Shown here one piece after another: positions 39,425 through 64,000 of a stretch of 64,000 nt of DNA (position 1 is the stretch's first letter; the number at the start of each line of letters is the position of its first letter). The notes beneath the pieces are model-generated. The model worked only from the letters and a program-made list of their open reading frames with translations, did not search any database and was not told where the DNA came from. The stretch is from an uncultured Desulfobacter sp. (GTDB lineage: Bacteria; Desulfobacterota; Desulfobacteria; Desulfobacterales; Desulfobacteraceae). The position numbers and the translations under genes were made by a program. The stretch lies in contig OY762069.1 of the NCBI GenBank assembly GCA_963665095.1, positions 864,001-928,000 of the forward strand. The letters run 5' to 3'.

Positions 39425-40894
39425 CTATTCAATTCCCAACTCTTTTTCTGCTTCCACCACTATGGATCTGATCTTCTGAAGCACCTCTTCAGGCAACGGA
39501 TCAGGCGTATGGTTTTCTAAAATGAACTGCACCTTTTGCAACGCTCTTTCATATGCGTTGGTGGCGCCTCTCTTCTCCCAGGAAGCCCTCATTCTTCTGT
39601 CAATAAGTTCAGGGGCTGACTGGCTTCTCATATGGCTGTATGTGTGCTTGTGCATGAGAAAATCTCCGCCAGGTCCCACCTCCTTGATGGGGTCTAATGC
39701 AAGAGTCTCATCATTCACGGGAATTCCCATGACGGTATGTTTGATCATACGCGCAAACTCACAATCAAGAACCAGCTGACCAAAATCAAAGGTGATGCCG
39801 CTTTCAAGCATCCCCGGACCGTAAATCATATTGGCACCTGCCAATGCGGGTATCAGTCCGGTAAGAGTCTTTTCATGGCCAGTCTGGACATCGGATATTT
39901 TTGAATCGCCCTAGCCACCGGCAACATAGCTCGGCAGTGCATAGTACCGGGCCAGCCGGGCAACCGCCCCGCTGATCACAGCACACTCAGGGGTTCCAAC
40001 GCTTGCAGATGCAAGTTTAAGGTCCATGGCAGTGGTTGAACTGCCGTAGATCACCGGCGTTCCCTTACGGGTCAGCTGGGCCAGGGTAATGCCGGAAAGT
40101 ACTTCGGCATTGTGGTTCACAAGGGTCCCTGCCAGGGTAACCGGGGCAGTGCCGCCGGACATGGCCATGGACAGAATATTGCACACCACATTGTTCTTTG
40201 CAGACTCCATGATGATTTCGCAGCAGTCTGAAATCAGGGTCAAAGGGCTTACCGGGCAGGTGGTAAAGGAGACAAGGGGACGTTCCTTGAACTTCTTGAT
40301 CCCGCCGGCAATGGCATGGCCCATCTCAAGAATCTTGTTGAGGAACTTTCCATTCACCGGACCAAAGGCGCAGTGCTTGGTGGTGTTGGTCAGGTAGGCC
40401 TCGGCATTGTGCAGGGCAACGGCACCCTGATCCACGTCATGGGCACCCATGGCCTTTTCACAGAAATCGATCTCCGGCAGATAGTCGATGACCCTGGCGG
40501 AGTCCACCAGGTCTTTTTTGGTGGGTTCCCGGGGTTCGCCGGTGTAGGGGTCGTTGACCATGACCCCTTCGCTGAAGTTGGTAAAATGGACCCGGGTATT
40601 TTCCAGCACAATATCGTGCTTGGGGTCCCGCCCATACAAAATAACTTTGGGTGGTGCCGAACGGATGGCATCCTCCACCACATAGGGGGGAATCTTCACC
40701 CTCCTGGTGTCGTGGTCGACAATGGCCCCACCCTGTTCAAAGCACTCCCGGGCGGCCTGGTCTTCCACAAACACCCCGGTTTCGCTTAAGACTTCCAGGG
40801 TACCGTAGTGGATATCCTGAAGCTCGTCATCCGTGAGGATGTTGAGACTCAGGCCGGAACCAATCTGTCTGCCCGCATGCAGGTTTCGTTTCAT
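39425..40894 (-). CDS. mttB: Pyrrolysine-containing trimethylamine:corrinoid methyltransferase (489 aa, Pyl at codon 328)
   Basis: Two track ORFs join in frame through TAG 39911-39913, giving PSYVAGG-O-GDSKISDVQTGHEKT...GANMIYGPGMLE; AAGGA RBS 8 nt before ATG 40894. Confidence 0.96.
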
Positions 40895-46165: not shown

Positions 46166-47560
46166 TTACAACCCGTCCAGAGGGCTTTTCACGCCTTTTC
46201 CACCGCGATTGAGGACATGAGTATAAATCATGGTTGTGGAAACATCTGCATGACCGAGCAGTTCCTGAACCGTGCGGATATCATAACCGCCTTCCAGAAG
46301 ATGTGTGGCAAAGCTGTGACGAAGGGCATGACAGTTCACTCGTTTGGCAATATTGGCCGCAGAAGCCGCCTTTTTTACCGCTTTTTGGAGACCGTTTTCG
46401 TGGATATGGTGGCGGCGGGTCTTTCCACTTTTGGGGTCAACCGAGAGCCGGCCGCTGGGGAAAACATACTGCCACGCCCACTCCTTCGGGGCATTGGGGG
46501 ATTTCCTTTCAAGCGCATAGGGAAGGGATACCCCGCCACAACCTTCTTCCAGGTCTTTCTCATGAACCTCGCGTACCTGCTCAAGATGCACCTGAAGCTC
46601 GCCGGCAAGCCGTTCCGGCAAAGGAACCACACGATCCTTTTTCCCTTTTCCGTCCCTGATAATAATCTGATGGTATTCAAAATCAAGATCCTGGACCCTG
46701 AGCCGGACACAGTCCATCAGCCGCATACCCGTGCCATAAAGCAGGGAGGCCATCAGCTTCTGCCGGCCCTCCATGTGGTCGAGCAGTCTTGCCACCTCAT
46801 TCCTGGTCAACACTACGGGCACCCGCCTGGGCCGTTTGGCACGTACAAAATCCCCGATATCGCCCAAAGGCTGTTTTAAAACCTTGTCATAAAAGAAGAC
46901 CAGGGCATTCAACGCCTGATTCTGAGTACTTACCGCAACATTTCTCTGAACAGCCAGGTGCTGGAGGAAACTGACAACCTCTGCACTGCCAAGCCCGGCC
47001 GGTGCCCGGTTGCCGCAAAACAGGATAAATCGCGCCACCCATGATTCATAAGACTGCTCAGTTCGTATGGAGTATCCTTTTGTCCGCAACTTCACCAGCA
47101 ACTGTTCCAGGATATCTGAATGGTGCTTCCTTACATCAGCAAGCTTTGAGTGTTTTATATTTGCCAGGTGATCAATGGTTTCCTTGGCCGAAGCAGTCAC
47201 GGCAACCGTGGGGTGGGTTTCTGTCAAAGAAACAGCTGAATCCATCCAGAATTTCCAGTCCACCTCCGGCAGCCAGGCCACACCCAGCATGGCAAACAAA
47301 TTCTGTATAGCATCGACCATCTGCCGGAACTGCCAGTCCTCGAGCCCCTTTGTTCTCCCCTGCTGTTCCAGGTAGGAAGCCACCTCTTCCGGTCCGTGTT
47401 CAGCCAGGCGAAGGTCAGGATATGCCTTGATATACTGCTCGGCCCGGATCACATACCACCTGGAGACATTACTTTTAATACCAATATGTTCCAGACGGTT
47501 TATGTAATTATCCCAAAACCGTTTTATCCCATTTTCCTGTGTTGATTTTCGCTGATTCAT
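46166..47560 (-). CDS. intI: Integron integrase, long form (464 aa)
   Basis: Tyrosine recombinase R-K-H-xxR-H-Y ([20 protein letters not shown]) plus the IntI-specific insertion [24 protein letters not shown]. Confidence 0.96.
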
Positions 47561-49342: not shown

Positions 49343-52369
<3,027 letters not shown>

Positions 52370-52380
52370 AGGCGGGAAAA

Positions 52381-54462
52381 ATGGCTGAAAATAAAGACCA
52401 GGCTAACAAGTTTGAGACGCTTCGTCAACAAGCCGAAGCGCTTATCAGAAATCAAACCGGTGTCATTCCAGAGACTCCTCCTGATATCCTCGACTTGATT
52501 CACGAACTCAGAATTCACCAGGCTGAACTCGAAATCCAGAATGAAGAGCTTCAGCGGGCACAACAGGAGATCTCTGACCTGCACAAGGAATACGAGAATT
52601 TATACGAGTTTGCACCGTGCGGTTACCTGACCCTCAATCATAAGGGCATCATCACCCACCTCAATCTGACAGGAAACCGCCTGCTTGATACACAACGAAA
52701 TCATGTGTCCAGAGTTGGGTTTTCACAATTCATTGATTTGGGGTGGAATGACGCCTACTTCTCTGCGCGTTCAAAGAGCGCCGAGACGGGCCGAAAGCAA
52801 AGCATCGAACTACCGATAAAAAGAAAAAATGACCCGCCTTTATGGGTTCAGGCCGAAATCCAGGCAGACCGCAACGAGGCGGATGAGGTTCTTCAATGGC
52901 GGATTGTGCTGTTGGACATCAGTGAAAAAAAGCAAGCGGTGGCAGCCCTTGAAAAAAGTGAAGCCAGATATCGCAAAATGATGGAGTCCATTTCCGACCC
53001 GCTGTATGTCTGCTCTCCAGATCAACGGGTTGAGTTCATAAATCCGGCAATGATTGAACGATTGGGAAGGGATGCCACCGGTGAAATTTGTTACCAGGCT
53101 ATTCACGACCTTGAGGAAACCTGCAATTGGTGCCCCTTTGATAAAGTCAGAAATGGAGAAACCATTGAAGAGAACATCGTCAGTCCTTTGGATAATCGAA
53201 ATTATCGCGCGACCCACATGCCGATTCTCAATGACGACCAGTCGGTTTCAAAGCTGACAATTTATAGAGACATCACGGATTTTCTAATGGCTCTGGAAGA
53301 GAAAGAAAAAGCCCAGGACAGATTGCAGCAGGCTCAGAAAATGGAATCCATCGGCAACCTGGCTGGCGGCGTTGCGCATGATTTCAACAATATATTATCC
53401 TCTGTCATCGGGTTTGCGGAACTTGCGCTCGACGATGTTGAACCCGGCAGCGCTTTAGAGGACAATTTGCATGAAATATACACAGCCGGGATAAGAGCCA
53501 AAGATATCGTCATGCAAATATTGACATTTGCCCGAAAAACCGACGAAAAGGTAAAGCCTGTCAGTATCGATAAAATTGCTAAAGACTCTCTCAGCTTGCT
53601 TCGGTCGTCCATACCCACTGATATTGAAATTGTTCAAAACATCAACACTGACGCATTGGTAGTTGGTAACCCATCCCTCTTACAGCAGGTGCTGTTAAAT
53701 CTTTCAAAGAACGCTGCGGACGCAATGGAAGATGATGGCGGCCGATTAGGAATAACTGTATCCGACGTTGCATTCGATGGAAAGGCTGCATCTGATCACG
53801 ACCTGTTAGGACCTGGTGACTATGTTCAAATAACCGTATCAGACACTGGGGTCGGCATCCCGCAGGATTCAATCCAATCTGTTTTTGAGCCGTACTATAC
53901 TACCAAAGGGTTAGGAAAAGGCACGGGCCTGGGGCTTGCTACCGTACACGGAACAGTAAAGAAATACGGTGGGGCGATTCATGTTGAAAGCCGATTAGGT
54001 GAAGGAACGAGTTTTACGGTTCTGTTGCCGGCCACCAAAAAGCGTGAGGCTACTAAACCGTATTTGCCTGAAGCACTGCCGAAAGGCAATGAAAGGATAC
54101 TGTTTGTGGATGACGAGTTGCCCATTGTGAAAATGTGCAGCCTGCTTCTTGAGCGTTTAGGTTATTCGGTGACAGCAAGAACCAGCAGCATAGAAGCGTT
54201 AGAACTGTTCCAAACGAAACCTGATGATTTCGATCTGGTCATAACTGATATGACGATGCCTGATCTGACCGGAGATAAACTGGCAGTTGAGTTGATGAAG
54301 ATTCGGCGGGATATTCCGGTGATTCTATGCACCGGCTACAGTAAAAAAATATCCGATGACACCGCCTCAGAAATAGGCATCAAGGCGTTCGCCTATAAAC
54401 CCATGGCTACGGCAGATTTAGCGAAAGCCATTCGGAAAGTGCTGGATGAAGCTAAAGGATAA
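52381..54462 (+). CDS. Cassette 3 gene 2: PAS hybrid sensor histidine kinase with receiver domain
   Basis: AHDFNN H-box, NAADAM, DTGVG, KGTGLGL; receiver VDD, DMTMP and KP. Confidence 0.94.
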   Translation: MAENKDQANKFETLRQQAEALIRNQTGVIPETPPDILDLIHELRIHQAELEIQNEELQRAQQEISDLHKEYENLYEFAPCGYLTLNHKGIITHLNLTGNRLLDTQRNHVSRVGFSQFIDLGWNDAYFSARSKSAETGRKQSIELPIKRKNDPPLWVQAEIQADRNEADEVLQWRIVLLDISEKKQAVAALEKSEARYRKMMESISDPLYVCSPDQRVEFINPAMIERLGRDATGEICYQAIHDLEETCNWCPFDKVRNGETIEENIVSPLDNRNYRATHMPILNDDQSVSKLTIYRDITDFLMALEEKEKAQDRLQQAQKMESIGNLAGGVAHDFNNILSSVIGFAELALDDVEPGSALEDNLHEIYTAGIRAKDIVMQILTFARKTDEKVKPVSIDKIAKDSLSLLRSSIPTDIEIVQNINTDALVVGNPSLLQQVLLNLSKNAADAMEDDGGRLGITVSDVAFDGKAASDHDLLGPGDYVQITVSDTGVGIPQDSIQSVFEPYYTTKGLGKGTGLGLATVHGTVKKYGGAIHVESRLGEGTSFTVLLPATKKREATKPYLPEALPKGNERILFVDDELPIVKMCSLLLERLGYSVTARTSSIEALELFQTKPDDFDLVITDMTMPDLTGDKLAVELMKIRRDIPVILCTGYSKKISDDTASEIGIKAFAYKPMATADLAKAIRKVLDEAKG

Positions 54463-56019: not shown

Positions 56020-56025
56020 AAGCCA

Positions 56026-56050
56026 ATTAGGATAGGACTCCCCATCATCT
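56026..56050 (-). pseudogene. 3'-terminal remnant (domain VI) of a group IIC intron in the cassette-4 attC R''
   Basis: ATTAGGATAGGACTCCCCATCA versus intact intron end ATCGGGATAGGACTCCCCATCA; follows AGCCA. Confidence 0.75.
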
Positions 56051-56202
56051 GATTCGGGGTCGGGCCAAGCTAATAAGCTGAAATTTAAATGAATAGTCTT
56101 TAAAAACGCCCTCAAAACTGTCTTAAATGAATGTTTTTGGGGGCAAAATTGACATTTTAAGAGGATTAAAACCCGCTCGAGTCCTACCAAAAATTAATAA
56201 TC

Positions 56203-56331
56203 GCCGAACAAGCCAATGAACCCGACCGGGCTTACTGCGCGGCTTTTCGAAGGTGTCTGGTTAATGAAAATTTAAACTTTTACCTGGGCTTCTGCGGTTT
56301 AAAAGCCCGGCGGGTTATCTATACGTTATGT
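56203..56331 (+). repeat. attC (long family)
   Basis: GCCGAAC...ATGAACCCGACCGGGCTT / AAGCCCGGCGGGTTAT...GTTATGT; shares internal sequence with the attC at 61066-61190. Confidence 0.85.
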
Positions 56332-56345
56332 GCAAAAATCACAAA

Positions 56346-56747
56346 ATGGAAATATTCAAAAAAATAGTAAGAGCTTTTTCAATTTTTATTTTGATAACAT
56401 CTATTTCAGTTTTGTTTGATAATAAGATATGGGAATATAATATTTTGTTTTTCTCAAATCTGATTAATTCAAAATATATTTTATTAGCTTTAACGAGTTC
56501 CTCAATTATAATATCGTTGGTTTTTCGTTTATATCATGGAATGATTATGTCAACTCACTTGAAGGACTCAGAAGATGCTCATAAGATTTCATTTTTTGGA
56601 ATGACCAATGTGGCTCACTACCCTAGTATATTGAATTCTATAGGGCTAAAAGCACGAAGAGAAATGATCTATTGGAATACAACAATTGTCATTTTATTGT
56701 TTAGTGCAGCGTTCATCATTGGAAAAGTGTTGGCAGAAATCACATAA
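56346..56747 (+). CDS. Cassette 5: hypothetical three-TM membrane protein
   Basis: AT-rich ORF; cassette begins GTTATGTG and ends CACATAAC. Confidence 0.7.
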   Translation: MEIFKKIVRAFSIFILITSISVLFDNKIWEYNILFFSNLINSKYILLALTSSSIIISLVFRLYHGMIMSTHLKDSEDAHKISFFGMTNVAHYPSILNSIGLKARREMIYWNTTIVILLFSAAFIIGKVLAEIT

Positions 56748-57049
56748 CCAATAAGGATTGATGCGACCTGACAAGGTCGCTTTCAATCCATTGTTCAAGA
56801 AGCCCGGGTTTCATATGGGTAAAGATTGATTGTGGTGCAGGCGGGGTAGGCAAGCACAGGGTGGAAATTGATAAAAAGTGCTTGCCGGTATGCTTTAACT
56901 TTTCAATTTTGAATAATTTTGACGTCGTTCTTTGAAAAACAGGACAGGTTCAGGGTTCGTTTTTCGGCCGCAGGACGTACTCGTCCCTGACGGTTCAGAA
57001 AACCGTTAAAAAACATGTATCCTAAAACCCGTTCCCTTTACGTTGAAGC

Positions 57050-58150
57050 CTATCCGAACCCAAAATCAGGCAACGGTAAGGGGCGGATATAGTAGATGTG
57101 ACATCTGAGCTTGAGGCCCGCCCCGCATTCCGGGCAAATTGGCTTTGGCGAAGATTTGGGTGTTTCTATAGGCCGCTGTTCTTTGAACCCCAGGGTTGAC
57201 TGGATAAGTGAACGGATTCGTTCAAGCGGGATGGAAGATCCCGGTCCCATGAAGCCATAATATCGGATTTTCATAAATCCTGTGGGCAGGACATGCTGAA
57301 GGAACCTGCGCATAAATTCCATTGTATCAAGGGTCATTTTCCGCAGGCGCCGGCTGCCGGGCTTTTTATAATGGAACATCACCTTCTGCTGATCGTAATG
57401 GATAATCCGGTAGTCGGAAATCGCCACTTTGAACACATAGGGGGCCAGGTATTTGATACTGTGGTGACTGGAAACGGCCTGGGAATTTACGTTGAACGGC
57501 TTTGACCAGACGTCCGGAGCAATACTTTGAAGTATTCCGGCCGTATTCAGCTGGGTTTTAAGCTTTGCTCTGAACACCTTGGACATGGCTTTGACCGGAG
57601 CGAAGAAGGCCGGACGGCAGGGATGCCATTTGCCGTCGGTCCGGGAATATGCTCCGCCGGGAACAACATAATGGATGTGCGGATGATACTGCATGGTCCG
57701 TCCCCAGGTGTGAAGGACTCCAAAAAAGCCGGGCAGATCACCGCCGATGAATTTGCTGTCCCTGGCAAAGGCTTTAAGTGTCTGTGAGGATGCCGCAAAC
57801 AGTGCCGCATAGGCCTCCTTCTGGTTGCTTCGAAACAGAGCGCGCAATTGTTCCGGGATGGTAAATGTTATCAGAAAATGAGGGCCCGGCAGTTGTCGTT
57901 CCAGCTGCCGGTCACGCCACTGGCGGGTTTTATGGTACTGGCATATGGGGCAGTGACGGTTTCCACAGGAACGAAAACCGAAATGTATCCGGCCGCAGCC
58001 GGTACAATCATAGACCACCAGGCCGCAGGCAGACGTCCGGCAGGAAATGATTGCCTTCAAGGCTTTTATGTGATTTTTTGGAATGCGGGTTTTATACCGA
58101 TGGAGGTATTCCCGGGCTGACCGGGCAAAAATGTTTTGAATGGCTCCCAT
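57050..58150 (-). CDS. IS91-family transposase with zinc-binding domain
   Basis: CRT..CG, SCGNRHCPICQ, HTWG, HPHIH, YLAPY and FLQHVLP.GF.KIRYYG motifs. Confidence 0.93.
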   Translation of the reverse strand: MGAIQNIFARSAREYLHRYKTRIPKNHIKALKAIISCRTSACGLVVYDCTGCGRIHFGFRSCGNRHCPICQYHKTRQWRDRQLERQLPGPHFLITFTIPEQLRALFRSNQKEAYAALFAASSQTLKAFARDSKFIGGDLPGFFGVLHTWGRTMQYHPHIHYVVPGGAYSRTDGKWHPCRPAFFAPVKAMSKVFRAKLKTQLNTAGILQSIAPDVWSKPFNVNSQAVSSHHSIKYLAPYVFKVAISDYRIIHYDQQKVMFHYKKPGSRRLRKMTLDTMEFMRRFLQHVLPTGFMKIRYYGFMGPGSSIPLERIRSLIQSTLGFKEQRPIETPKSSPKPICPECGAGLKLRCHIYYIRPLPLPDFGFG

Positions 58151-58152
58151 GG

Positions 58153-59022
58153 CTACACCTCCTTCATCAGATCATTGATAAGTCCGCAGGCGTGTTCATG
58201 CCCCTGGGTGGTCAGATGCAGGTAAACCATGGTGGTGGTCAGACTGCTGTGGCCCAGATACTGCTGGATGCGCCGGATGTTGACACCTGCTTCGAGCAGA
58301 TGGGTGGCGTAGCTGTGGCGAAGGGTGTGGATGGTGACCCGTTTTGTGATGGGCAAAGAGGTCAGTGTCTGTCTCAGGGCTCCCCTGACGGAATTGCTCC
58401 TCATGGGTTCTTCTGCTGTTGAGGCTTCTTTGCCGTTGCGTCCAAGTTTTGGAAAGATCAGTTTGGGGTTGCGATGGGTGGCCCAGTATTCACGCAGAAT
58501 AAAAAGTGTCTTTTCAGGCAGCGGCACGTATCGGTCCTTTGCGCCTTTGCCCCGATGGACATGGATGAACATGCGCTGGCTGTCAATGTCCCTGACCTGG
58601 AGGCTCAATCCCTCATTGAGCCTGAGACCGCAGGAGTAGACAGTGGTCAGGTAGGCTTTGTTCCAGGGTGTCCGGACAGCAGTAAGAATGGACTTAACCT
58701 CGTTAATACTGAGTACGGATGGTAACCGCTGTTCCCGTTTGGCATTAATCAGGGCAAGCGTATGCCAGTCCCGCTGCAGCACATTGATGAAGAAGAACTT
58801 TATGCCGCTGTAGCAGATACGCATGGTGGCGGCAGACCATTGATCAACGTTTTTGCGATGGAGAAAATAATCCTGCAGTTCCCGCTCGGTGATTTCATCA
58901 GGGGTTTTGCCGAAGAAATCGACCAGCATACGGATAGCGCGGGTGTAGTTCTTTTGAGTGGAAGTGCTCATCCCGGCAAGTTGCAGGGCCCTCATTGATT
59001 GTTGATAATAATCGCTCATCAT
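58153..59022 (-). CDS. Tyrosine recombinase/integrase (IS91-associated)
   Basis: [26 protein letters not shown] and LGH...TMVY motifs; lacks the IntI insertion; AAGGAG RBS. Confidence 0.93.
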
Positions 59023-59154
59023 ACCGTCTCCTTTCATGTGAAGGGTTAATTGGATTGGCGTCCAGATACGATACGATGAAAATGACGGGCAATGCAACTT
59101 GCCGATTTTATTAATTAGAGTAGTTGTTTGGCTGCCGCGTAGCGGCTTACTTGA

Positions 59155-61065
59155 ATCGGGATAGGACTCCCCATCACTGAGGAGCCCTCCCACACCACCC
59201 GGCATACGGATCACGTACCAAGGCGGTTCGGCTGATTTCGGAAATCAGTTCCCGGGCAGATATAATCCTTTTTTGACAAAATACATTTCAGGCATGGCAA
59301 TGGCCACCCACTTGATTTTGCTCATGTGCCAGTACTTTTTACGGGCGTTACCGCAAAGCATGGCGTCCCCATGCGAAATACCAAGTTTTTCCAGGTTACG
59401 AACCCTGGTTCCAGGGTTTTTCCATTGTTTCCAGACAAGACTTCTCAGCCGTCGCAGTATCCAGACCTTGAGTTCTTTCAGAAAATAGAGGGTTTCCGTG
59501 AGCCGGAAATAACCCCACCATCCACGAATGTACTGGTTCAAGTCCTGAATCACCTGCCACAGGCTTTTGCCCCGTTTACGGCTGGTTAATTCCCGGACCT
59601 TGTCCTTGAACCGTTTCATGCTCTTGGCGTGAATCCGGATCTTGGACTGCCCACACATTTGAAAATATGTGAATCCTAAGAATTTGCTCAGCCAGGGTCT
59701 GCTGACAGCACTTTTCTCCTGGTTTACTTTGAGCTTGAGTTTCACCGTCAGAAACCGGGTGATACTCTCCATAACCCTTTCGGCAGCCTTGCGGCTTTTG
59801 CAGAAAATCATAAAATCATCGGCATACCGAACATACCGGTGGCCTCGTTTCTCCAACTCTTTATCCAGTTCATCCAGGACAATATTGGACAGCAGCGGAG
59901 AAAGAGGACCTCCCTGGGGAGTCCCTTCTTCTGTAGGCACCGTGACGCCCGAGACCAGCACACCAGACCTCAGATATTGTCGTATTACCTTCAATACGCG
60001 CTTATCTTTTATTCTTCTGGCGAGTCTGCTCATCAGGCGGTCGTGCGAAACTCGGTCAAAAAATTTCGACAGGTCCATATCAACGACATAGGTATAACCT
60101 TCAACCATGTACCTTTTACCCTGCATTACCGCATCGTGTGCGGATCTGCCGGGCCTGAACCCATAACTGTGTTCAGAGAAAAAGGGGTCCCAGATCTGTT
60201 CCAGGACCTGGGATATGGCCTGTTGAATAAACCGGTCAAGCACCGTGGGTATTCCAAGTAAACGGATTCCGCCGTCTGGTTTGGGGATTTCCTTCCTTTT
60301 AACCGGTAGCGGTTTGTGCCTGCCGTTAAGCAGGTCTTGTTTGATTTCATGCCAGTGCTTTGCAAGGTAGCTGCCAAGCTGGCTGGTTTTCATACCATCC
60401 ACCCCAGGGGCACCCTTGTTTGCACAGACATGTTTCCATGCCAGGATAATGTTGTTGCGTTCAAGGATCATCTCCATTAACCGGGCATTGTTTCCCAGAC
60501 GTTCGGCAATTTGTGACGCTGGAAACAGTTCCATCTGCTGTGGCGATCTGTTCACAAGTACACATCTCCTATTTGTCGTTATCATTTACCCGGACCATTC
60601 GGCCCGGGCACCGTTCAGGCCTTCACCGGGGTGAGTCCTCCCTGGTTTGCAGGGCTCGTTTCCTCCGCCTACTATGCCTTCTGCTGACTTCTCCCATGCG
60701 GTCAGAGTCGGTTACCCGCCCCTCAGCCGTTACGGCACATGGGAGATCTCCCGGGGTAAACACGTGTCTTTCAGTACGTGAATGCCGGATTTACGGACAT
60801 ACCCTGTAATGGATAGAGGACTTCACCTTGTTGTGCAGGCTCGTCCCGGTATGTGCGCCTTATATCCGATTCCTGTACGTCATCCCGTACTTTTGCGGTA
60901 CCTTGCCTCAGCAAGGCGGCTTCCTTCCGAAGCACCGTCACCGGTACCCCGTTGCACTACCACTACACCCTTCGCCTCCATCCGGCTGGGCCTAAGACTT
61001 GCCAAACGCATTGAAATCGTTTACGTTTGACTCACTTTTAAGAACACGTGCCGTGCCCGGCACAC
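59155..61065 (-). mobile_element. Group II intron, bacterial class C (attC-targeting), 1911 bp
   Basis: 5' GTGTGCCGGGCACGG; domain V GAACCGCC...GGTGGTG with CGC triad; 3' end CCTATCCCGAT; removal restores CTTGAAC. Confidence 0.92.
59245..60585 (-). CDS. ltrA: Group II intron reverse transcriptase/maturase lacking an endonuclease domain (start uncertain)
   Basis: GAPGVDG, RLLGIPTVLDR, GTPQGGPLSPLL, RYADD and GWWGYF motifs. Confidence 0.96.
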   Translation of the reverse strand: MITTNRRCVLVNRSPQQMELFPASQIAERLGNNARLMEMILERNNIILAWKHVCANKGAPGVDGMKTSQLGSYLAKHWHEIKQDLLNGRHKPLPVKRKEIPKPDGGIRLLGIPTVLDRFIQQAISQVLEQIWDPFFSEHSYGFRPGRSAHDAVMQGKRYMVEGYTYVVDMDLSKFFDRVSHDRLMSRLARRIKDKRVLKVIRQYLRSGVLVSGVTVPTEEGTPQGGPLSPLLSNIVLDELDKELEKRGHRYVRYADDFMIFCKSRKAAERVMESITRFLTVKLKLKVNQEKSAVSRPWLSKFLGFTYFQMCGQSKIRIHAKSMKRFKDKVRELTSRKRGKSLWQVIQDLNQYIRGWWGYFRLTETLYFLKELKVWILRRLRSLVWKQWKNPGTRVRNLEKLGISHGDAMLCGNARKKYWHMSKIKWVAIAMPEMYFVKKGLYLPGN

Positions 61066-61190
61066 ACAAAACGCTGGAGCGGGACCAGGCTTACTGCGCG
61101 GCCTTTCGGGAGTTCCTGGTTCAGGAAAATTTAAACTTTTGTCGGAGTTTTTGGGGTTTAAAAGCCTGGCCCCTCAGCTCCCCGTTGTGG
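61066..61190 (+). repeat. attC (long family), R'' split by the intron
   Basis: AC-AAAAC-GCTGGAGCGGGACCAGGCTT...AAGCCTGGCCCCTCAGC-TCCCC-GTTGTGG. Confidence 0.88.
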
Positions 61191-61258
61191 GTTAAAAACC
61201 AACGTGATACAGAAAAAGACATATTGAAAATCATGTCACCCGGTGCTATATTGTTGTT

Positions 61259-61627
61259 ATGCGAAAATTAATGACAAAGCACTTTGCGAAATGGGCTTCA
61301 AAGCAAAAAATACTGATCGATGACTTGGAAACAGCATTGGAAGAAGTCGGTAGTGGAAATTACGAAGCAAATTTGGGCGGACACATTTACAAAAAAAGAA
61401 TTCGGTTCCCTGGTCAAGGCAAAAGCGGTAGTGGAAGAACGATTGTTTGCTATAAAAAAGGGAGCAGAATTATTTTCATCCATGGATTCTCAAAAAATGA
61501 AAAATCAAACCTTTCACCCAAAGAGCTATTTGTCTTCAAGGAACTTGCTAAAATTTTACTTTCATTTTCTGAAAGGGAAATTGATATAGCAGTCCAAAAT
61601 GGTGATTTAAAAGAGGTGGCAACATGA
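61259..61627 (+). CDS. Cassette 6: RelE/ParE-family toxin (start may be 61271)
   Basis: ANLGGHIYKKRI, GKSGSGRTI and FSKNEKSNL motifs; toxin-first pair. Confidence 0.88.
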   Translation: MRKLMTKHFAKWASKQKILIDDLETALEEVGSGNYEANLGGHIYKKRIRFPGQGKSGSGRTIVCYKKGSRIIFIHGFSKNEKSNLSPKELFVFKELAKILLSFSEREIDIAVQNGDLKEVAT

Positions 61628-61929
61628 GAAAATCAATTTCAGATTCAATTACCGAAACCGTAAGGGACTTAAATAAAAGTGGGCTTGTGGATGACATTAC
61701 TTTAAGAAATATTGAAAAATTATGTCTTCCAGAAGTTAAAGACTATTCCCCCAAAAACATAACCGAAATCCGAAAAAGATTTAATTTAAGCCAAGCTGCG
61801 TTAGCAAGCGTTTTCAATATTAGTACCTCTACTGTACAGAAGTGGGAACAGGGGAATAAAAAACCTACAGGAGCCTCAAGGAAATTGTTGGATATCATGG
61901 AAAGAAAAGGCTTAGAGGCTTTAATATAA
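61624..61929 (+). CDS. Cassette 6: XRE/HTH antitoxin
   Basis: IRKRFNLSQAALA...TVQKWEQGNKKPTG motif; ATGA overlap with the toxin. Confidence 0.9.
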   Translation: MRKSISDSITETVRDLNKSGLVDDITLRNIEKLCLPEVKDYSPKNITEIRKRFNLSQAALASVFNISTSTVQKWEQGNKKPTGASRKLLDIMERKGLEALI

Positions 61930-62245
61930 CTCGCACAACAAAATAAGGATTAGTAACCGTGCTGAGGCACGAAGCTCGGTACTAATCCTTTGGTTCAAGA
62001 AGCCGCGGGTGTATAGGGGGAAAGGTTACCGGTTTTCTGGATGGGTTAATGATCAGGTCTGATGAAAACTTAAAAAACGGCCTTTCTTTTGATGTGAAAA
62101 CCAGAAGTCCGGCCGATTTTCAGTTGTTAAAACCCGGTTCAAAACCTTAGGTATCTGCAATATTGCGCACGAATAGCGCAACATGCCTGGTGATAGATCA
62201 GGCTGTTTGTAAAAAAGGCCCAAACCGGGTCAAAAAAATGTGCAG

Positions 62246-63331
62246 TTACCGGGGTTTGCCCCGGGATTCAGGTTTTACAAAGAAAATGAATTTCAAATCA
62301 TGTCCGCAATGGCTGCATTTAATGCCGGGGATTGCAGGCTCCCGGATTTCAGTAAAAAGCGCAATAATGTCATGGATGAATGAGATCAGTTCACGGATTT
62401 TTTCAATGGGTAATGCACTGTTGGGATTAAGAAATCCATAATGCCGGATTTTCATAAATCCCTTGGGAAGAACATGTTGCAAGAACCTTCTGATAAATTC
62501 CATGGCATCCAGAGCCATGGTTTTCCATTTTTTCTTTTCACGATCCTTGTACGAAAATTTAATGACACCATTTTCAATGCTTTTGATGCGGTTATTGGAG
62601 ATGGCCACCCGGAAAACATATCTTGAAAGATATCGCAGGCAATTTTGTCCCTGCCCCACTGATTGGCTGTCAATCACCCACTGCTGTTTCCAGACGGCCG
62701 GATCAATTTTGTTGAGCAGTCCGGCTTTTTTCATCGCATTCTTGAATTTGGCTTTGAAAATAATCTCCAAGGGTTTTGTGTGAACAAATAAATCCTGCCT
62801 GGAAGCAAGCCATAGGTTTTTACCGGATAAAGCACCACCGGGGATGATCAGATGTAAATGGGGGTGATACTGGAGCATGCCGCCCCATGTGTGGAGACCG
62901 GCCAGGTATCCAATTTGGTCCGATCCGACAAACCGCTTGTCTTGTGCTAATTTTTTCAATGCTTTATTGGTGCATGAAAACAGGGCGCTGTAGGTTTGTC
63001 TTTGATGTGATCTTACAACGTCCCGAAGACCTTGCGGCAGTGTGATCGTTAACAAAAAATAGTGAGTCGGCAGCAATTTTTTCATTTGCTGAACAAGCCA
63101 TTGATCTGCTTTACTCTGTTGACAGTTGGGGCAATGGCGGTTGTCGCAGCAGCAGTGGATCAGATGCAGATTTTTGCAGTCGCTGCATTCATACACCATT
63201 GTACCAAAGGAGCCGCTTCGGCACTGAATGATATCCCGGATGGTTTTTTTATGGGCCTTGGGCATTCGATCCCCATAAAGTGCCATATATTGGGCGCCAT
63301 ACATCTGAAAGATTTTTTGAATGGCGCTCAT
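62246..63331 (-). CDS. IS91-family transposase
   Basis: NRHCPNCQ, HTWG, HPHLH, YLSRY and FLQHVLPKGFMKIRHYG motifs. Confidence 0.93.
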   Translation of the reverse strand: MSAIQKIFQMYGAQYMALYGDRMPKAHKKTIRDIIQCRSGSFGTMVYECSDCKNLHLIHCCCDNRHCPNCQQSKADQWLVQQMKKLLPTHYFLLTITLPQGLRDVVRSHQRQTYSALFSCTNKALKKLAQDKRFVGSDQIGYLAGLHTWGGMLQYHPHLHLIIPGGALSGKNLWLASRQDLFVHTKPLEIIFKAKFKNAMKKAGLLNKIDPAVWKQQWVIDSQSVGQGQNCLRYLSRYVFRVAISNNRIKSIENGVIKFSYKDREKKKWKTMALDAMEFIRRFLQHVLPKGFMKIRHYGFLNPNSALPIEKIRELISFIHDIIALFTEIREPAIPGIKCSHCGHDLKFIFFVKPESRGKPR

Positions 63332-64000
63332 GACAACACCCCCTGCATGACTTTGGAAACCCTGTCATTGGAATCAACCCGGGCCTGTGTGGTCACATGC
63401 AGATAAATCATGGTACTTTTAAGGGTTTTATGACCCAATATTTTTTGAACATGCCGTATGGGGATATTGGCTTCGAGCAGATGAGTTGCATAGGCATGGC
63501 GGAATACATGAGGGTGGACATGTTTTTTAAACTTCATGCGTTTTAAAGTGGATCGTAAAACGCCTTGAACACCACTTTGGCTCACATGATTTTCGGCATA
63601 TTGGGCATCTTTACCGCCATTGCGGCCCAGGGCAGGGAAAATCCATTTAGAATTGCGATGGGTTTTATAGTAGTCTCGCAAAGCCGACAGGGTTATTGGG
63701 GGTAAGGGGACGGTCCTGTCCCGGAAACCCTTTCCTCCGTGAATATGCACAAGTCCCCTGTCAGAAAGGATATCCTTGACCTGAAGCGTTGTTGCTTCCC
63801 TCAAACGCAGGCCCATGGAATATAAGGTCAAATAAAATGTATAACTTTGTACGGTGGGAAGGGCATATATAATTTTCCTGACTTCCTCCAGGCTCAGAAT
63901 AGTTGGTAAGGTCTCCTCGCGCTTCCATTGGATTTCGTTGAAAAGGTTCCAGGATCTGACCAGGGTTCTGCTGAAAAAATGTTGGATGCCGGAATAACTG
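63328..64000 (-). CDS. Tyrosine recombinase (5' end outside window)
   Basis: YSMGLR, GKGFRDR, HVFRHAYATHLLE and LGH...TMIY motifs; frame open to window end. Confidence 0.92.
   Translation of the reverse strand, partial: SYSGIQHFFSRTLVRSWNLFNEIQWKREETLPTILSLEEVRKIIYALPTVQSYTFYLTLYSMGLRLREATTLQVKDILSDRGLVHIHGGKGFRDRTVPLPPITLSALRDYYKTHRNSKWIFPALGRNGGKDAQYAENHVSQSGVQGVLRSTLKRMKFKKHVHPHVFRHAYATHLLEANIPIRHVQKILGHKTLKSTMIYLHVTTQARVDSNDRVSKVMQGVLS

Follow-up and report, generated by a model that had tools for sequence, protein, structure and literature searches.

IS91-family elements with a tyrosine recombinase are inserted antisense in integron cassette arrays with a bias toward attC sites

Introduction

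How does a mobile element that is not a gene cassette come to occupy the recombination site of one, and which of its two enzymes is responsible? The question is raised by a 64,000-nucleotide stretch of DNA (hereafter, the window) from an uncultured Desulfobacter sp., corresponding to positions 864,001 to 928,000 of contig OY762069.1 (assembly GCA_963665095.1); the source genome, G000, is a single contig of 6.9 Mb. An integron integrase gene encoding IntI (46166..47560, minus strand; domain search and sequence) heads a plus-strand cassette array, in which two IS91-family units of ∼2.4 kb, elements 1 and 2, lie antisense to the array. Each unit encodes a Y2-HUH transposase and an intact IntI-like tyrosine recombinase. 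A first-pass annotation, made from the sequence alone, had proposed that these are mobile elements which parasitize attC sites, rebuild the sites on both sides and could move by rolling circle, by their own recombinase or as cassettes of IntI. The analysis described here indicates that the elements are copied in the manner of IS91, that their choice of target is not that of canonical IS91 and that they are not cassettes. Positions are those of the window unless a genome is named, numbered family genomes (G012, G072, G095, etc.) and collected loci (L numbers) are cited by handle, and a slash within a sequence marks a cut or joint.

Results

Cassette 5 (56325..56748, plus strand), with an open reading frame of 139 amino acids, starts with the core GTTATGT (56325 to 56331), which is exactly complementary to ACATAAC (56742 to 56748) and so identifies the latter as a genuine R'' box. 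Element 1 is inserted at the AAC of this box and element 2 at the R'' GCACAAC (61933 to 61939) of cassette 6 (61184..61939, plus strand), which by domain search encodes a RelE/helix-turn-helix toxin-antitoxin pair; the antisense placement directly after both boxes had been read correctly in the first pass. Element 1 measures 2,408 nt from AAC to CTTG and is present in three identical copies in G000, and element 2 is present in two copies that differ at 9 of 2,399 positions, including a 1-nt deletion in the recombinase gene. All five copies begin at AAC, and four of them lie antisense in the R'' of an attC and are followed by CTTG/AAC and an attC body. The fifth splits a 439-codon frame in a second array, and AAC is single in the joined site.

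An exact empty site was detected for the copy at genome position 3892875, as the cassette before it occurs twice in G012 without the element and with an attC that is identical up to G/TT. Another was provided by a 2,336-nt relative (recombinase plus IS91 transposase, GTTC ter) located between aadA1 and qacEdelta1 on the Escherichia coli plasmid NZ_LT985243.1. This relative sits at GTCTAAC of the aadA1 attC, in a class 1 integron on a 160-kb IncC plasmid; in the comparison with NC_004998.1, which carries the empty allele, its right flank matches at 250 of 250 positions and its left flank at 265 of 267. No other full-length match was present among the matches listed for 72,556 plasmids, and this relative was absent from 5,426 E. 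coli genomes. In empty sites AAC is single; with the element present, AAC is found at both junctions. Together with the flank enrichment described below, these sites bear out the proposal of a mobile element that homes to the R'' of attC and rebuilds both flanks. A further relative with AAC-core ends was noted on a Vibrio plasmid (NZ_OP958859.1, L286), directly upstream of an arr gene.

For the window copies the record of empty alleles was less complete. Cassette 6 occurs without the element in G012 (100%), G095 and G115, and its attC there is identical to the attC now behind element 2 at 83 of 122 aligned positions; as the empty cassette carries a different attC, a rearrangement followed the insertion of element 2. 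Among 161 family genomes, no empty allele was found for cassette 5, for the cassette preceding the second copy of element 2 or for the cassette bearing the solo hairpin described below. Deletion of element 1 thus restores an attC for cassette 5 as a fold, as had been predicted, without a native counterpart in these genomes, and the comparison with empty alleles that had been suggested succeeded for cassette 6 alone, with another attC. Transport of element 2 together with its attC was rejected, since the attCs behind its copies have diverged at 8 of 118 positions, against the 9 of 2,399 in the elements themselves. In G072, one cassette-plus-element pair precedes two different attCs; a site-specific event was not accepted as the cause, since homologous recombination between repeated introns and elements explains the arrangement equally well.

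The generality of this placement was assessed with 180 distinct right junctions from family genomes, 12 genome loci and 120 metagenome loci, the last being picked by a ter pattern ending in CTTG of which AAC was not a part. AAC was found directly after terIS in 168 of the 180. For attC scoring, 167 right flanks of at least 100 nt were used and 13 were dropped. A strict top-strand attC rule was passed by 67 of 167 right flanks compared with 16 of 600 random AAC sites, and the top strand scored above the bottom strand in 67 right flanks, with the reverse in 2. A second rule was passed by 57 of 167 right flanks (55 of 152 in the CTTG clade and 2 of 15 in the GTTC/GTCC clade) compared with 55 of 1,000 control AAC sites. 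Enrichment over random AAC sites was ∼6- to 15-fold, a ratio that overstates significance because related copies are not independent. The two rules recovered 12 and 14 of 16 hand-picked element-free attCs (75 to 88%), some of which had first been found with similar rules; given this detection rate and a pass rate of 34 to 40%, full attCs make up roughly 40 to 55% of the targets. The signature of an L'' box, T+8/A+11, was present in 110 of 167 targets compared with 304 of 3,000 controls and, among flanks failing the attC rule, in 60 of 110 compared with 64 of 1,000. A stricter genome-wide mapping of attCs missed most sites and does not enter these counts, and the exact end pattern, applied phylum-wide, matched 9 of 301 genomes, the ends varying by clade.

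Left junctions had AAC in 69 of 76 cases; five of the other seven look misanchored and two are real variants, CAC and ATC. The bases before the left AAC read R-Y-M-Y and are R''-like, with an IS91-type tetramer in only 5 of 69, three of which duplicate the element's own end, indicating that the insertion rule differs from that of IS91. In the array of G072, all six copies are antisense and five of the six stand before an attC. Ends with an AAC core were also found in Gammaproteobacteria and Bacteroidota. Targeting of attC is, then, a bias and not exclusive: the view that the flanks are R'' boxes holds for four of the five G000 copies and for the 34 to 40% of right flanks that are full attCs, but many copies occupy an AAC with an L''-like half-site and one lies within a gene. 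Insertion at any AAC without attC enrichment, which had been named as the outcome that would speak against attC targeting, is not what these counts show.

In G072:2355001-2450000 (L224 to L228), ∼15 copies of one IIC-type intron, several of them in tandem, were observed at N/AAC, one base off the usual site. Introns at left junctions in G072 were considered as proof that the left end is read as an attC, but this was rejected, as the intron uses N/AAC everywhere and may have come before or after the element.

Both elements share a left end of the form AATAAGGATT-stem-AATCC-N3/4-GTTCAAGAAGCC, with the boxes at 56793 to 56804 and 61993 to 62004. The hairpins of elements 1 and 2 were more stable than 200 of 200 shuffles on either strand (z, −6.1/−5.3 and −3.9/−3.5). 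In element 1 this end (56746..56804, plus strand; sequence and folding) consists of AAC, a GGATT...AATCC hairpin and the box, which is complementary to the far end, and together with the host R'' it forms a composite attC-like site; the corresponding end of element 2, again a hairpin and a complementary box, is at 61937..62004 (plus strand; sequence and folding). The spacers between R and L boxes in the left composite sites are 8/5 and 9/6 nt (plus strand), and 7/5 in G066, so that the canonical 5/6 is not seen; the shared hairpin with noncanonical spacers is thus as first reported. Four canonical IS91 copies served as controls, having a tetramer followed by /ATCGATAGGAATTTAAATCC at oriIS and a hairpin, 3 nt and CTCG at terIS, then variable host bases, a layout also given in passages of PMC13181058. 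The elements match this polarity and layout (4/4 controls), with ori downstream of the transposase gene, a GGA..TCC palindrome and a ter made of a hairpin, 3 nt and a tetramer; similarity at oriIS was judged by eye. The left hairpin is therefore assigned as oriIS and the far end as terIS, and the attC-like left hairpin is best described, on its sequence, as a remodeled oriIS and not the attC of a cassette. Terminal inverted repeats are lacking, a 12-nt inverted match being internal, behind the ori hairpin, and no Rfam model matches the ends.

The ter tetramers observed were CTTG, GTTC, GTCC and CCTG. In 74 of 81 cases the tetramer is Watson-Crick complementary to the box behind oriIS (CTTG with CAAG in 57, GTTC with GAAC in 12 and GTCC with GGAC in 5) and in 7 it is not; a pair of CCTG with CAGG was also seen. 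By eye, a ter-complementary box was not seen in recombinase-free canonical IS91 copies, and this box appears to be new relative to IS91. Canonical oriIS begins with ATC, whereas that of the elements begins with AAC. Computed circle junctions form a single long stem with an AAC/GTT core (−24.5 and −22.8 kcal/mol, equaled by 0 of 200 shuffles), and the same ends when integrated fold at −15.8 and −13.5 kcal/mol. Short copies without genes, of 264 to 503 nt (6 among 53 lengths), retain both ends.

The terIS of element 1 (59132..59154, plus strand; layout as in IS91) comprises a GCCGC-GTA-GCGGC hairpin, TTA, CTTG and the first A of the rebuilt R''. That of element 2 ends at genome position 928332, 332 bp past the window, again as CTTG/AAC followed by an attC. 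In the window copy of element 1, but not in the two other copies, a group IIC-attC-type intron (59155..61065, minus strand; reverse transcriptase/maturase, 59245 to 60585; sequence and domain search) lies inside the rebuilt R'' at CTTGA/AC. This corresponds to TTGT/T, the insertion site reported for IIC-attC introns in a passage of PMC7923331, indicating that the intron entered the R'' that element 1 had rebuilt. Next follows the displaced body of the host attC (61066..61190, plus strand; sequence), which ends in R' GTTGTGG and belongs to a family of 11 related sites in G000; the host attC (61060 to 61195) has a modest fold (z, −1.4/−1.9), yet it passes the box rule. Group II introns in sense orientation were seen to begin right after an attC R' at G000 positions ∼928460 and 2927570.

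The transposase of element 1 (57050..58150, minus strand; 366 amino acids) has intact HUH and YxxxY motifs, and its tyrosine recombinase (58153..59022, minus strand; ∼289 amino acids, the start being placed by the position of the ribosome-binding site) has an intact R-K-H-R-H-Y set and is without the I2 insertion of IntI (domain search and alignment for both). By domain search, element 2 encodes a transposase of 361 amino acids (62246..63331, minus strand) and the 3' part of a recombinase gene (63328..64000, minus strand) that starts beyond the window. The transposases contain Y2_Tnp (PF04986) and Zn_Tnp_IS91 (PF14319) domains and the recombinases Phage_integrase and SAM_4 domains. The two transposases are 41% identical, and named relatives of the transposase were from Desulfobacterales and other environmental metagenome-assembled genomes. 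Four HUH/YxxxY residues are invariant in 78 of 78 transposases, and the residues of the recombinase R-K-H-R-H/W-Y set are kept in 62 to 66 of 66 sequences, apart from K (52 of 66). The closest solved structures to the element recombinase are XerA/XerC-like and IntI4. An insertion of ∼33 residues lies between the catalytic K and HxxR of the array IntI and is missing from the element recombinases; according to passages of 10.1101/542381, IntI-like recombinases of IS91 elements group with IntI without having its insertion, which is said to be necessary for specific DNA recognition. In the GTTC/GTCC clade (L209 to L218, G082, G047 and related), recombinase matches were in two frames in 10 of 10 copies, near an A run, suggestive of a programmed frameshift.

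A third family of Y2 transposase elements, without a recombinase, has four copies in G000 (113862-115654, 133809-135421, ∼932200-933696 and 3330470-3332151). This family has the build of a cassette in sense orientation, with an attC-like end of canonical geometry, and in two of the three starts listed it begins, in sense, at G/TT behind an attC half, which is the IntI pattern. A second intI (G000 3348309-3354689), which is interrupted, heads a minus-strand array with one copy each of element 1, element 2 and the third family.

At 7 of 106 ori ends, the first bases of the element are part of a tandem duplication. Three of these duplications start exactly at /AAC without a slide (ends GTCC, AGGA and CTGG), three others, which have a 2-nt slide, finish with GTTC, and one is ambiguous. 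The simplest cause would be abortive rolling-circle rounds from a nick at N/AAC; slippage could alternatively account for the sliding duplications. With the IS91 anatomy of the ends, these footprints support the rolling-circle movement put forward in the first-pass annotation, and copy-out of this kind by the transposase is, in our view, probable and well supported.

Solo ori hairpins were also encountered. In the set examined, 1 of 88 was solo (genome 2928303); it is an exact copy of the element 1 hairpin and lies behind a cassette R''. At G/TT it gives way to a toxin-antitoxin cassette, the start of which is found behind ordinary attCs in G002 and G076. A family-wide hairpin pattern gave ∼140 matches, 40 of which, chosen by eye, were fetched, and 31 of these were ori-like: 25 run into a box, 1 is solo, 4 are joined as GTTC/AAC to nonelement DNA and 1 is ambiguous. 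The second solo hairpin (G125) ends at G/TT, between a cassette with perfect core and inverse core and the next gene. Two of the four GTTC/AAC joins have an L''-like box by eye, and folding did not yield a clean full attC for any of the four. No match to a recombinase or transposase was seen near any of the six ori-like hairpins outside the group of 25 (2 to 6 kb in the case of the four joins). Two ori hairpins ending at G/TT in attC slots imply that an IntI-type crossover at the composite site has happened, and the left composite site has been used as an attC at G/TT at least twice. The reciprocal product, an element body behind an ordinary attC, was not found, the hairpin being retained at 37 of 39 boxes, with chance matches the likely explanation for the remaining 2. 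Use of the composite site as an attC is thus upheld, and movement of the element body as an IntI cassette, one of the routes suggested at the outset, is not. Hairpins on cassettes lacking the element, which might have marked them as ordinary attCs, occur in these two cases but are read as scars, the one in G000 being identical to the end of element 1. The toxin-antitoxin cassette found behind the solo hairpin of G000 also occurs in G076 (L291), where its own R'' bears an element end of the GTTC clade.

Elsewhere in the window, a CheB/CheR-PAS fusion and a PAS histidine kinase-response regulator (49343 to 54462; ∼5.4 kb, large for a cassette) are flanked by two attC sites. A short piece left over from the 3' end of a group II intron (repeat D15) is present at 56022 to 56070, at the end of a KAP NTPase cassette, and a match to the Rfam model PYLIS_3 (pyrrolysine insertion sequence, mttB; 78 bits) at 39814 to 39913 (minus strand).

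Discussion

The reading that we favor, and to which we would assign about an even chance, is a two-enzyme cycle of the IS91 family that exploits attC, in which the transposase copies out a single-stranded circle and the element's recombinase inserts it at AA/C into the top strand of attC. The Y2 transposase would nick the antisense strand at N/AAC of oriIS, initiate a rolling-circle copy and stop at CTTG/ of terIS, generating a single-stranded circle with the junction CTTG/AAC; passages of PMC13181058 describe a bottom-strand single-stranded circle as the functional IS91 intermediate. As the covariation suggests, terIS would pair with the box behind the ori hairpin, so that the junction takes the form of a long stem whose core is AAC/GTT. 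A crossover catalyzed by the IntI-like recombinase would then join this folded junction to a host site, either the AAC of an R'' box in the top strand of attC or an AAC with an L''-like half-site, so that the element lands antisense to the array. The outcome matches what is found, with AAC at both junctions, a terIS that gives the host attC a new R'' and a host R'' that forms a second attC-like site with the ori hairpin. The solo hairpins show that this second site can recombine at G/TT and remain as the attC of a cassette. More tentatively, and at somewhat less than even confidence, we see the elements as hybrids, in which an HUH transposase makes single-stranded circles and an IntI relative, without the insertion that reads the hairpin, pastes them into the attC top strand avoided by IntI; oriIS would be a working attC left as a new cassette site, and the elements would create or swap attCs, including those of clinical class 1 integrons.

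Several observations weigh against a recombinase acting at the insertion step. The 3-nt AAC core masks the crossover, as the product is the same whether the transposase joins at /AAC or the recombinase crosses over at AA/C; both enzymes give CTTGAAC/C, so that the junction sequence is the same for either. Non-AAC variants on both sides (2 clear ones on the left; 12 of 180 on the right, some caused by introns) do not map the crossover either, and two right-hand cases (L092 and L197) that were compared by eye with their own R' were not compensated and were discarded as uninformative. Every footprint that fixes a cut site points to the transposase and none to the recombinase. A ter-to-ori circle joint was absent from the 15 joints listed of 30 (contigs of four runs aligned with genome 919901-934000), an absence that carries no weight because contigs drop rare forms. 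The distance from K to HxxR is 66 to 75 residues in the element recombinases, compared with 107 in IntI, and attC top strands are described as nonrecombinogenic for IntI in a passage of PMC11023631. In all three loci read from alphaproteobacterial relatives with the same gene pair, the core is GTC and attC is absent.

An alternative to which we attach a lower but appreciable probability is that the transposase performs both steps, the box serving as a DNA guide that pairs with ter plus AAC for termination and with the target AAC for site choice. N/AAC would be nicked where attC exposes single-stranded DNA; the recombinase would aid targeting or resolve dimers and cointegrates. All fixed breakpoints are tetramer/AAC joins, in keeping with this proposal, as are the four loci where an ori hairpin ending in GTTC/AAC is joined to nonelement DNA, the ATC of canonical oriIS in the place of AAC, and the covariation of the core with the first three bases of the box (AAC/GTT, and GTC/GAC in the three alphaproteobacterial loci). 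A passage of PMC13181058 also has the IS91 TnpA integrating single-stranded circles unaided. However, what the targets have in common is an L''-box signature at the spacing of a recombinase half-site, and not a 5' tetramer (5 of 69) or the sequence of ori. A transposase acting alone would also leave unexplained both the intact recombinase kept in all full-length members aligned and the contrast in sense and antisense placement with the recombinase-free element.

Insertion or movement of the element by host IntI as a gene cassette is very improbable. The element, in its own orientation, does read as a cassette with complementary ends, and the two solo hairpins (G000 2928303 and G125) end exactly at G/TT of the next cassette. 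IntI should, however, insert in sense at R' or attI, and the flanks are 67 top to 2 bottom; no right junction lies beside an intI start among 167 checked; the spacers are noncanonical; and element bodies have not been found behind ordinary attCs. The part played by host IntI would thus appear to come later, at the composite site, and not to be the insertion of the element itself. It is also unlikely that attC plays no part and that a short AAC-N7-T-N2-A motif anywhere suffices, attC copies dominating because R''/L'' fit this motif and insertions there are harmless. Such a motif would accommodate the 100 to 110 of 167 right flanks that fail the attC rules, the low pass rate of the GTTC/GTCC clade, the copy interrupting the 439-codon frame and several G082 and G047 copies at half-sites. 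It fits poorly with the enrichment over random AAC sites, with the clustering of copies in arrays and with the E. coli plasmid, on which the single R'' of the aadA1 attC was hit although so short a motif is abundant elsewhere on 160 kb.

If the two-enzyme cycle is correct, the recombinases found in many IS91-family elements acquire a definite function that experiments can address, and the cycle may reveal recombination on the attC strand unused by IntI. Alongside IIC-attC introns and IS1111, the elements would rank as a third kind of attC parasite. The ori hairpins that stand alone in attC slots make visible one way in which new attC sites can arise, an open question for integrons. As the relative in the aadA1 attC indicates, clinical integrons are already within reach of the family, although a single case was seen there in 72,556 plasmids.

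No description of exact R'' targeting, orientation, end pairing or scars was found by full-text literature searches, with subscription papers, ISfinder notes and supplements (e.g., Figure S2 of PMC9229058, which may show the ISShvi3 junction) outside the search. Recombinase-carrying members of the IS91 family include ISSod25, ISWz1 and others (ISfinder). Likened by description rather than alignment, ISShvi3-type members have the same gene pair as the elements described here; passages of PMC9229058 present ISShvi3 as an IS91-family member with an upstream tyrosine recombinase, one copy being beside an attC. With IS91, IS801, IS1294 and IS1294b the elements share the Y2-HUH transposase with its zinc domain, the location of oriIS downstream and terIS upstream of the transposase gene and a ter palindrome beside a tetramer of the CTTG/GTTC/GTCC type. 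They differ in that the IS91 family targets a 5' tetramer and IS91 makes no duplication, whereas here AAC is targeted together with 3' features of attC and is present at both junctions, and in having a ter-complementary box and a recombinase gene in place of IS91 orf121.

Like IIC-attC introns, which retrohome, and IS1111, which uses a DEDD recombinase, the elements are parasites of attC, the intron site being one base from theirs; introns and IS1111 interrupt attC, whereas insertion of the elements provides attC with a fresh R'' and brings in another attC-like hairpin. Antisense insertion of the introns in R'' and invasion of attC by IS1111 elements are reported in passages of PMC7923331 and PMC9229058, respectively. 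With integron cassettes the elements share a complementary core and inverse core and a circle junction stem with AAC/GTT, and they differ in their noncanonical spacers, in their antisense position at R'' rather than in sense at G/TT of R' or attI and in having enzymes of their own. CTX-type phages integrate folded single-stranded DNA by means of a tyrosine recombinase, and there, too, the substrate proposed for recombination is DNA made single stranded by an HUH enzyme, with dif as the target, compared with attC here; these phages are mentioned in a passage of PMC9345347.

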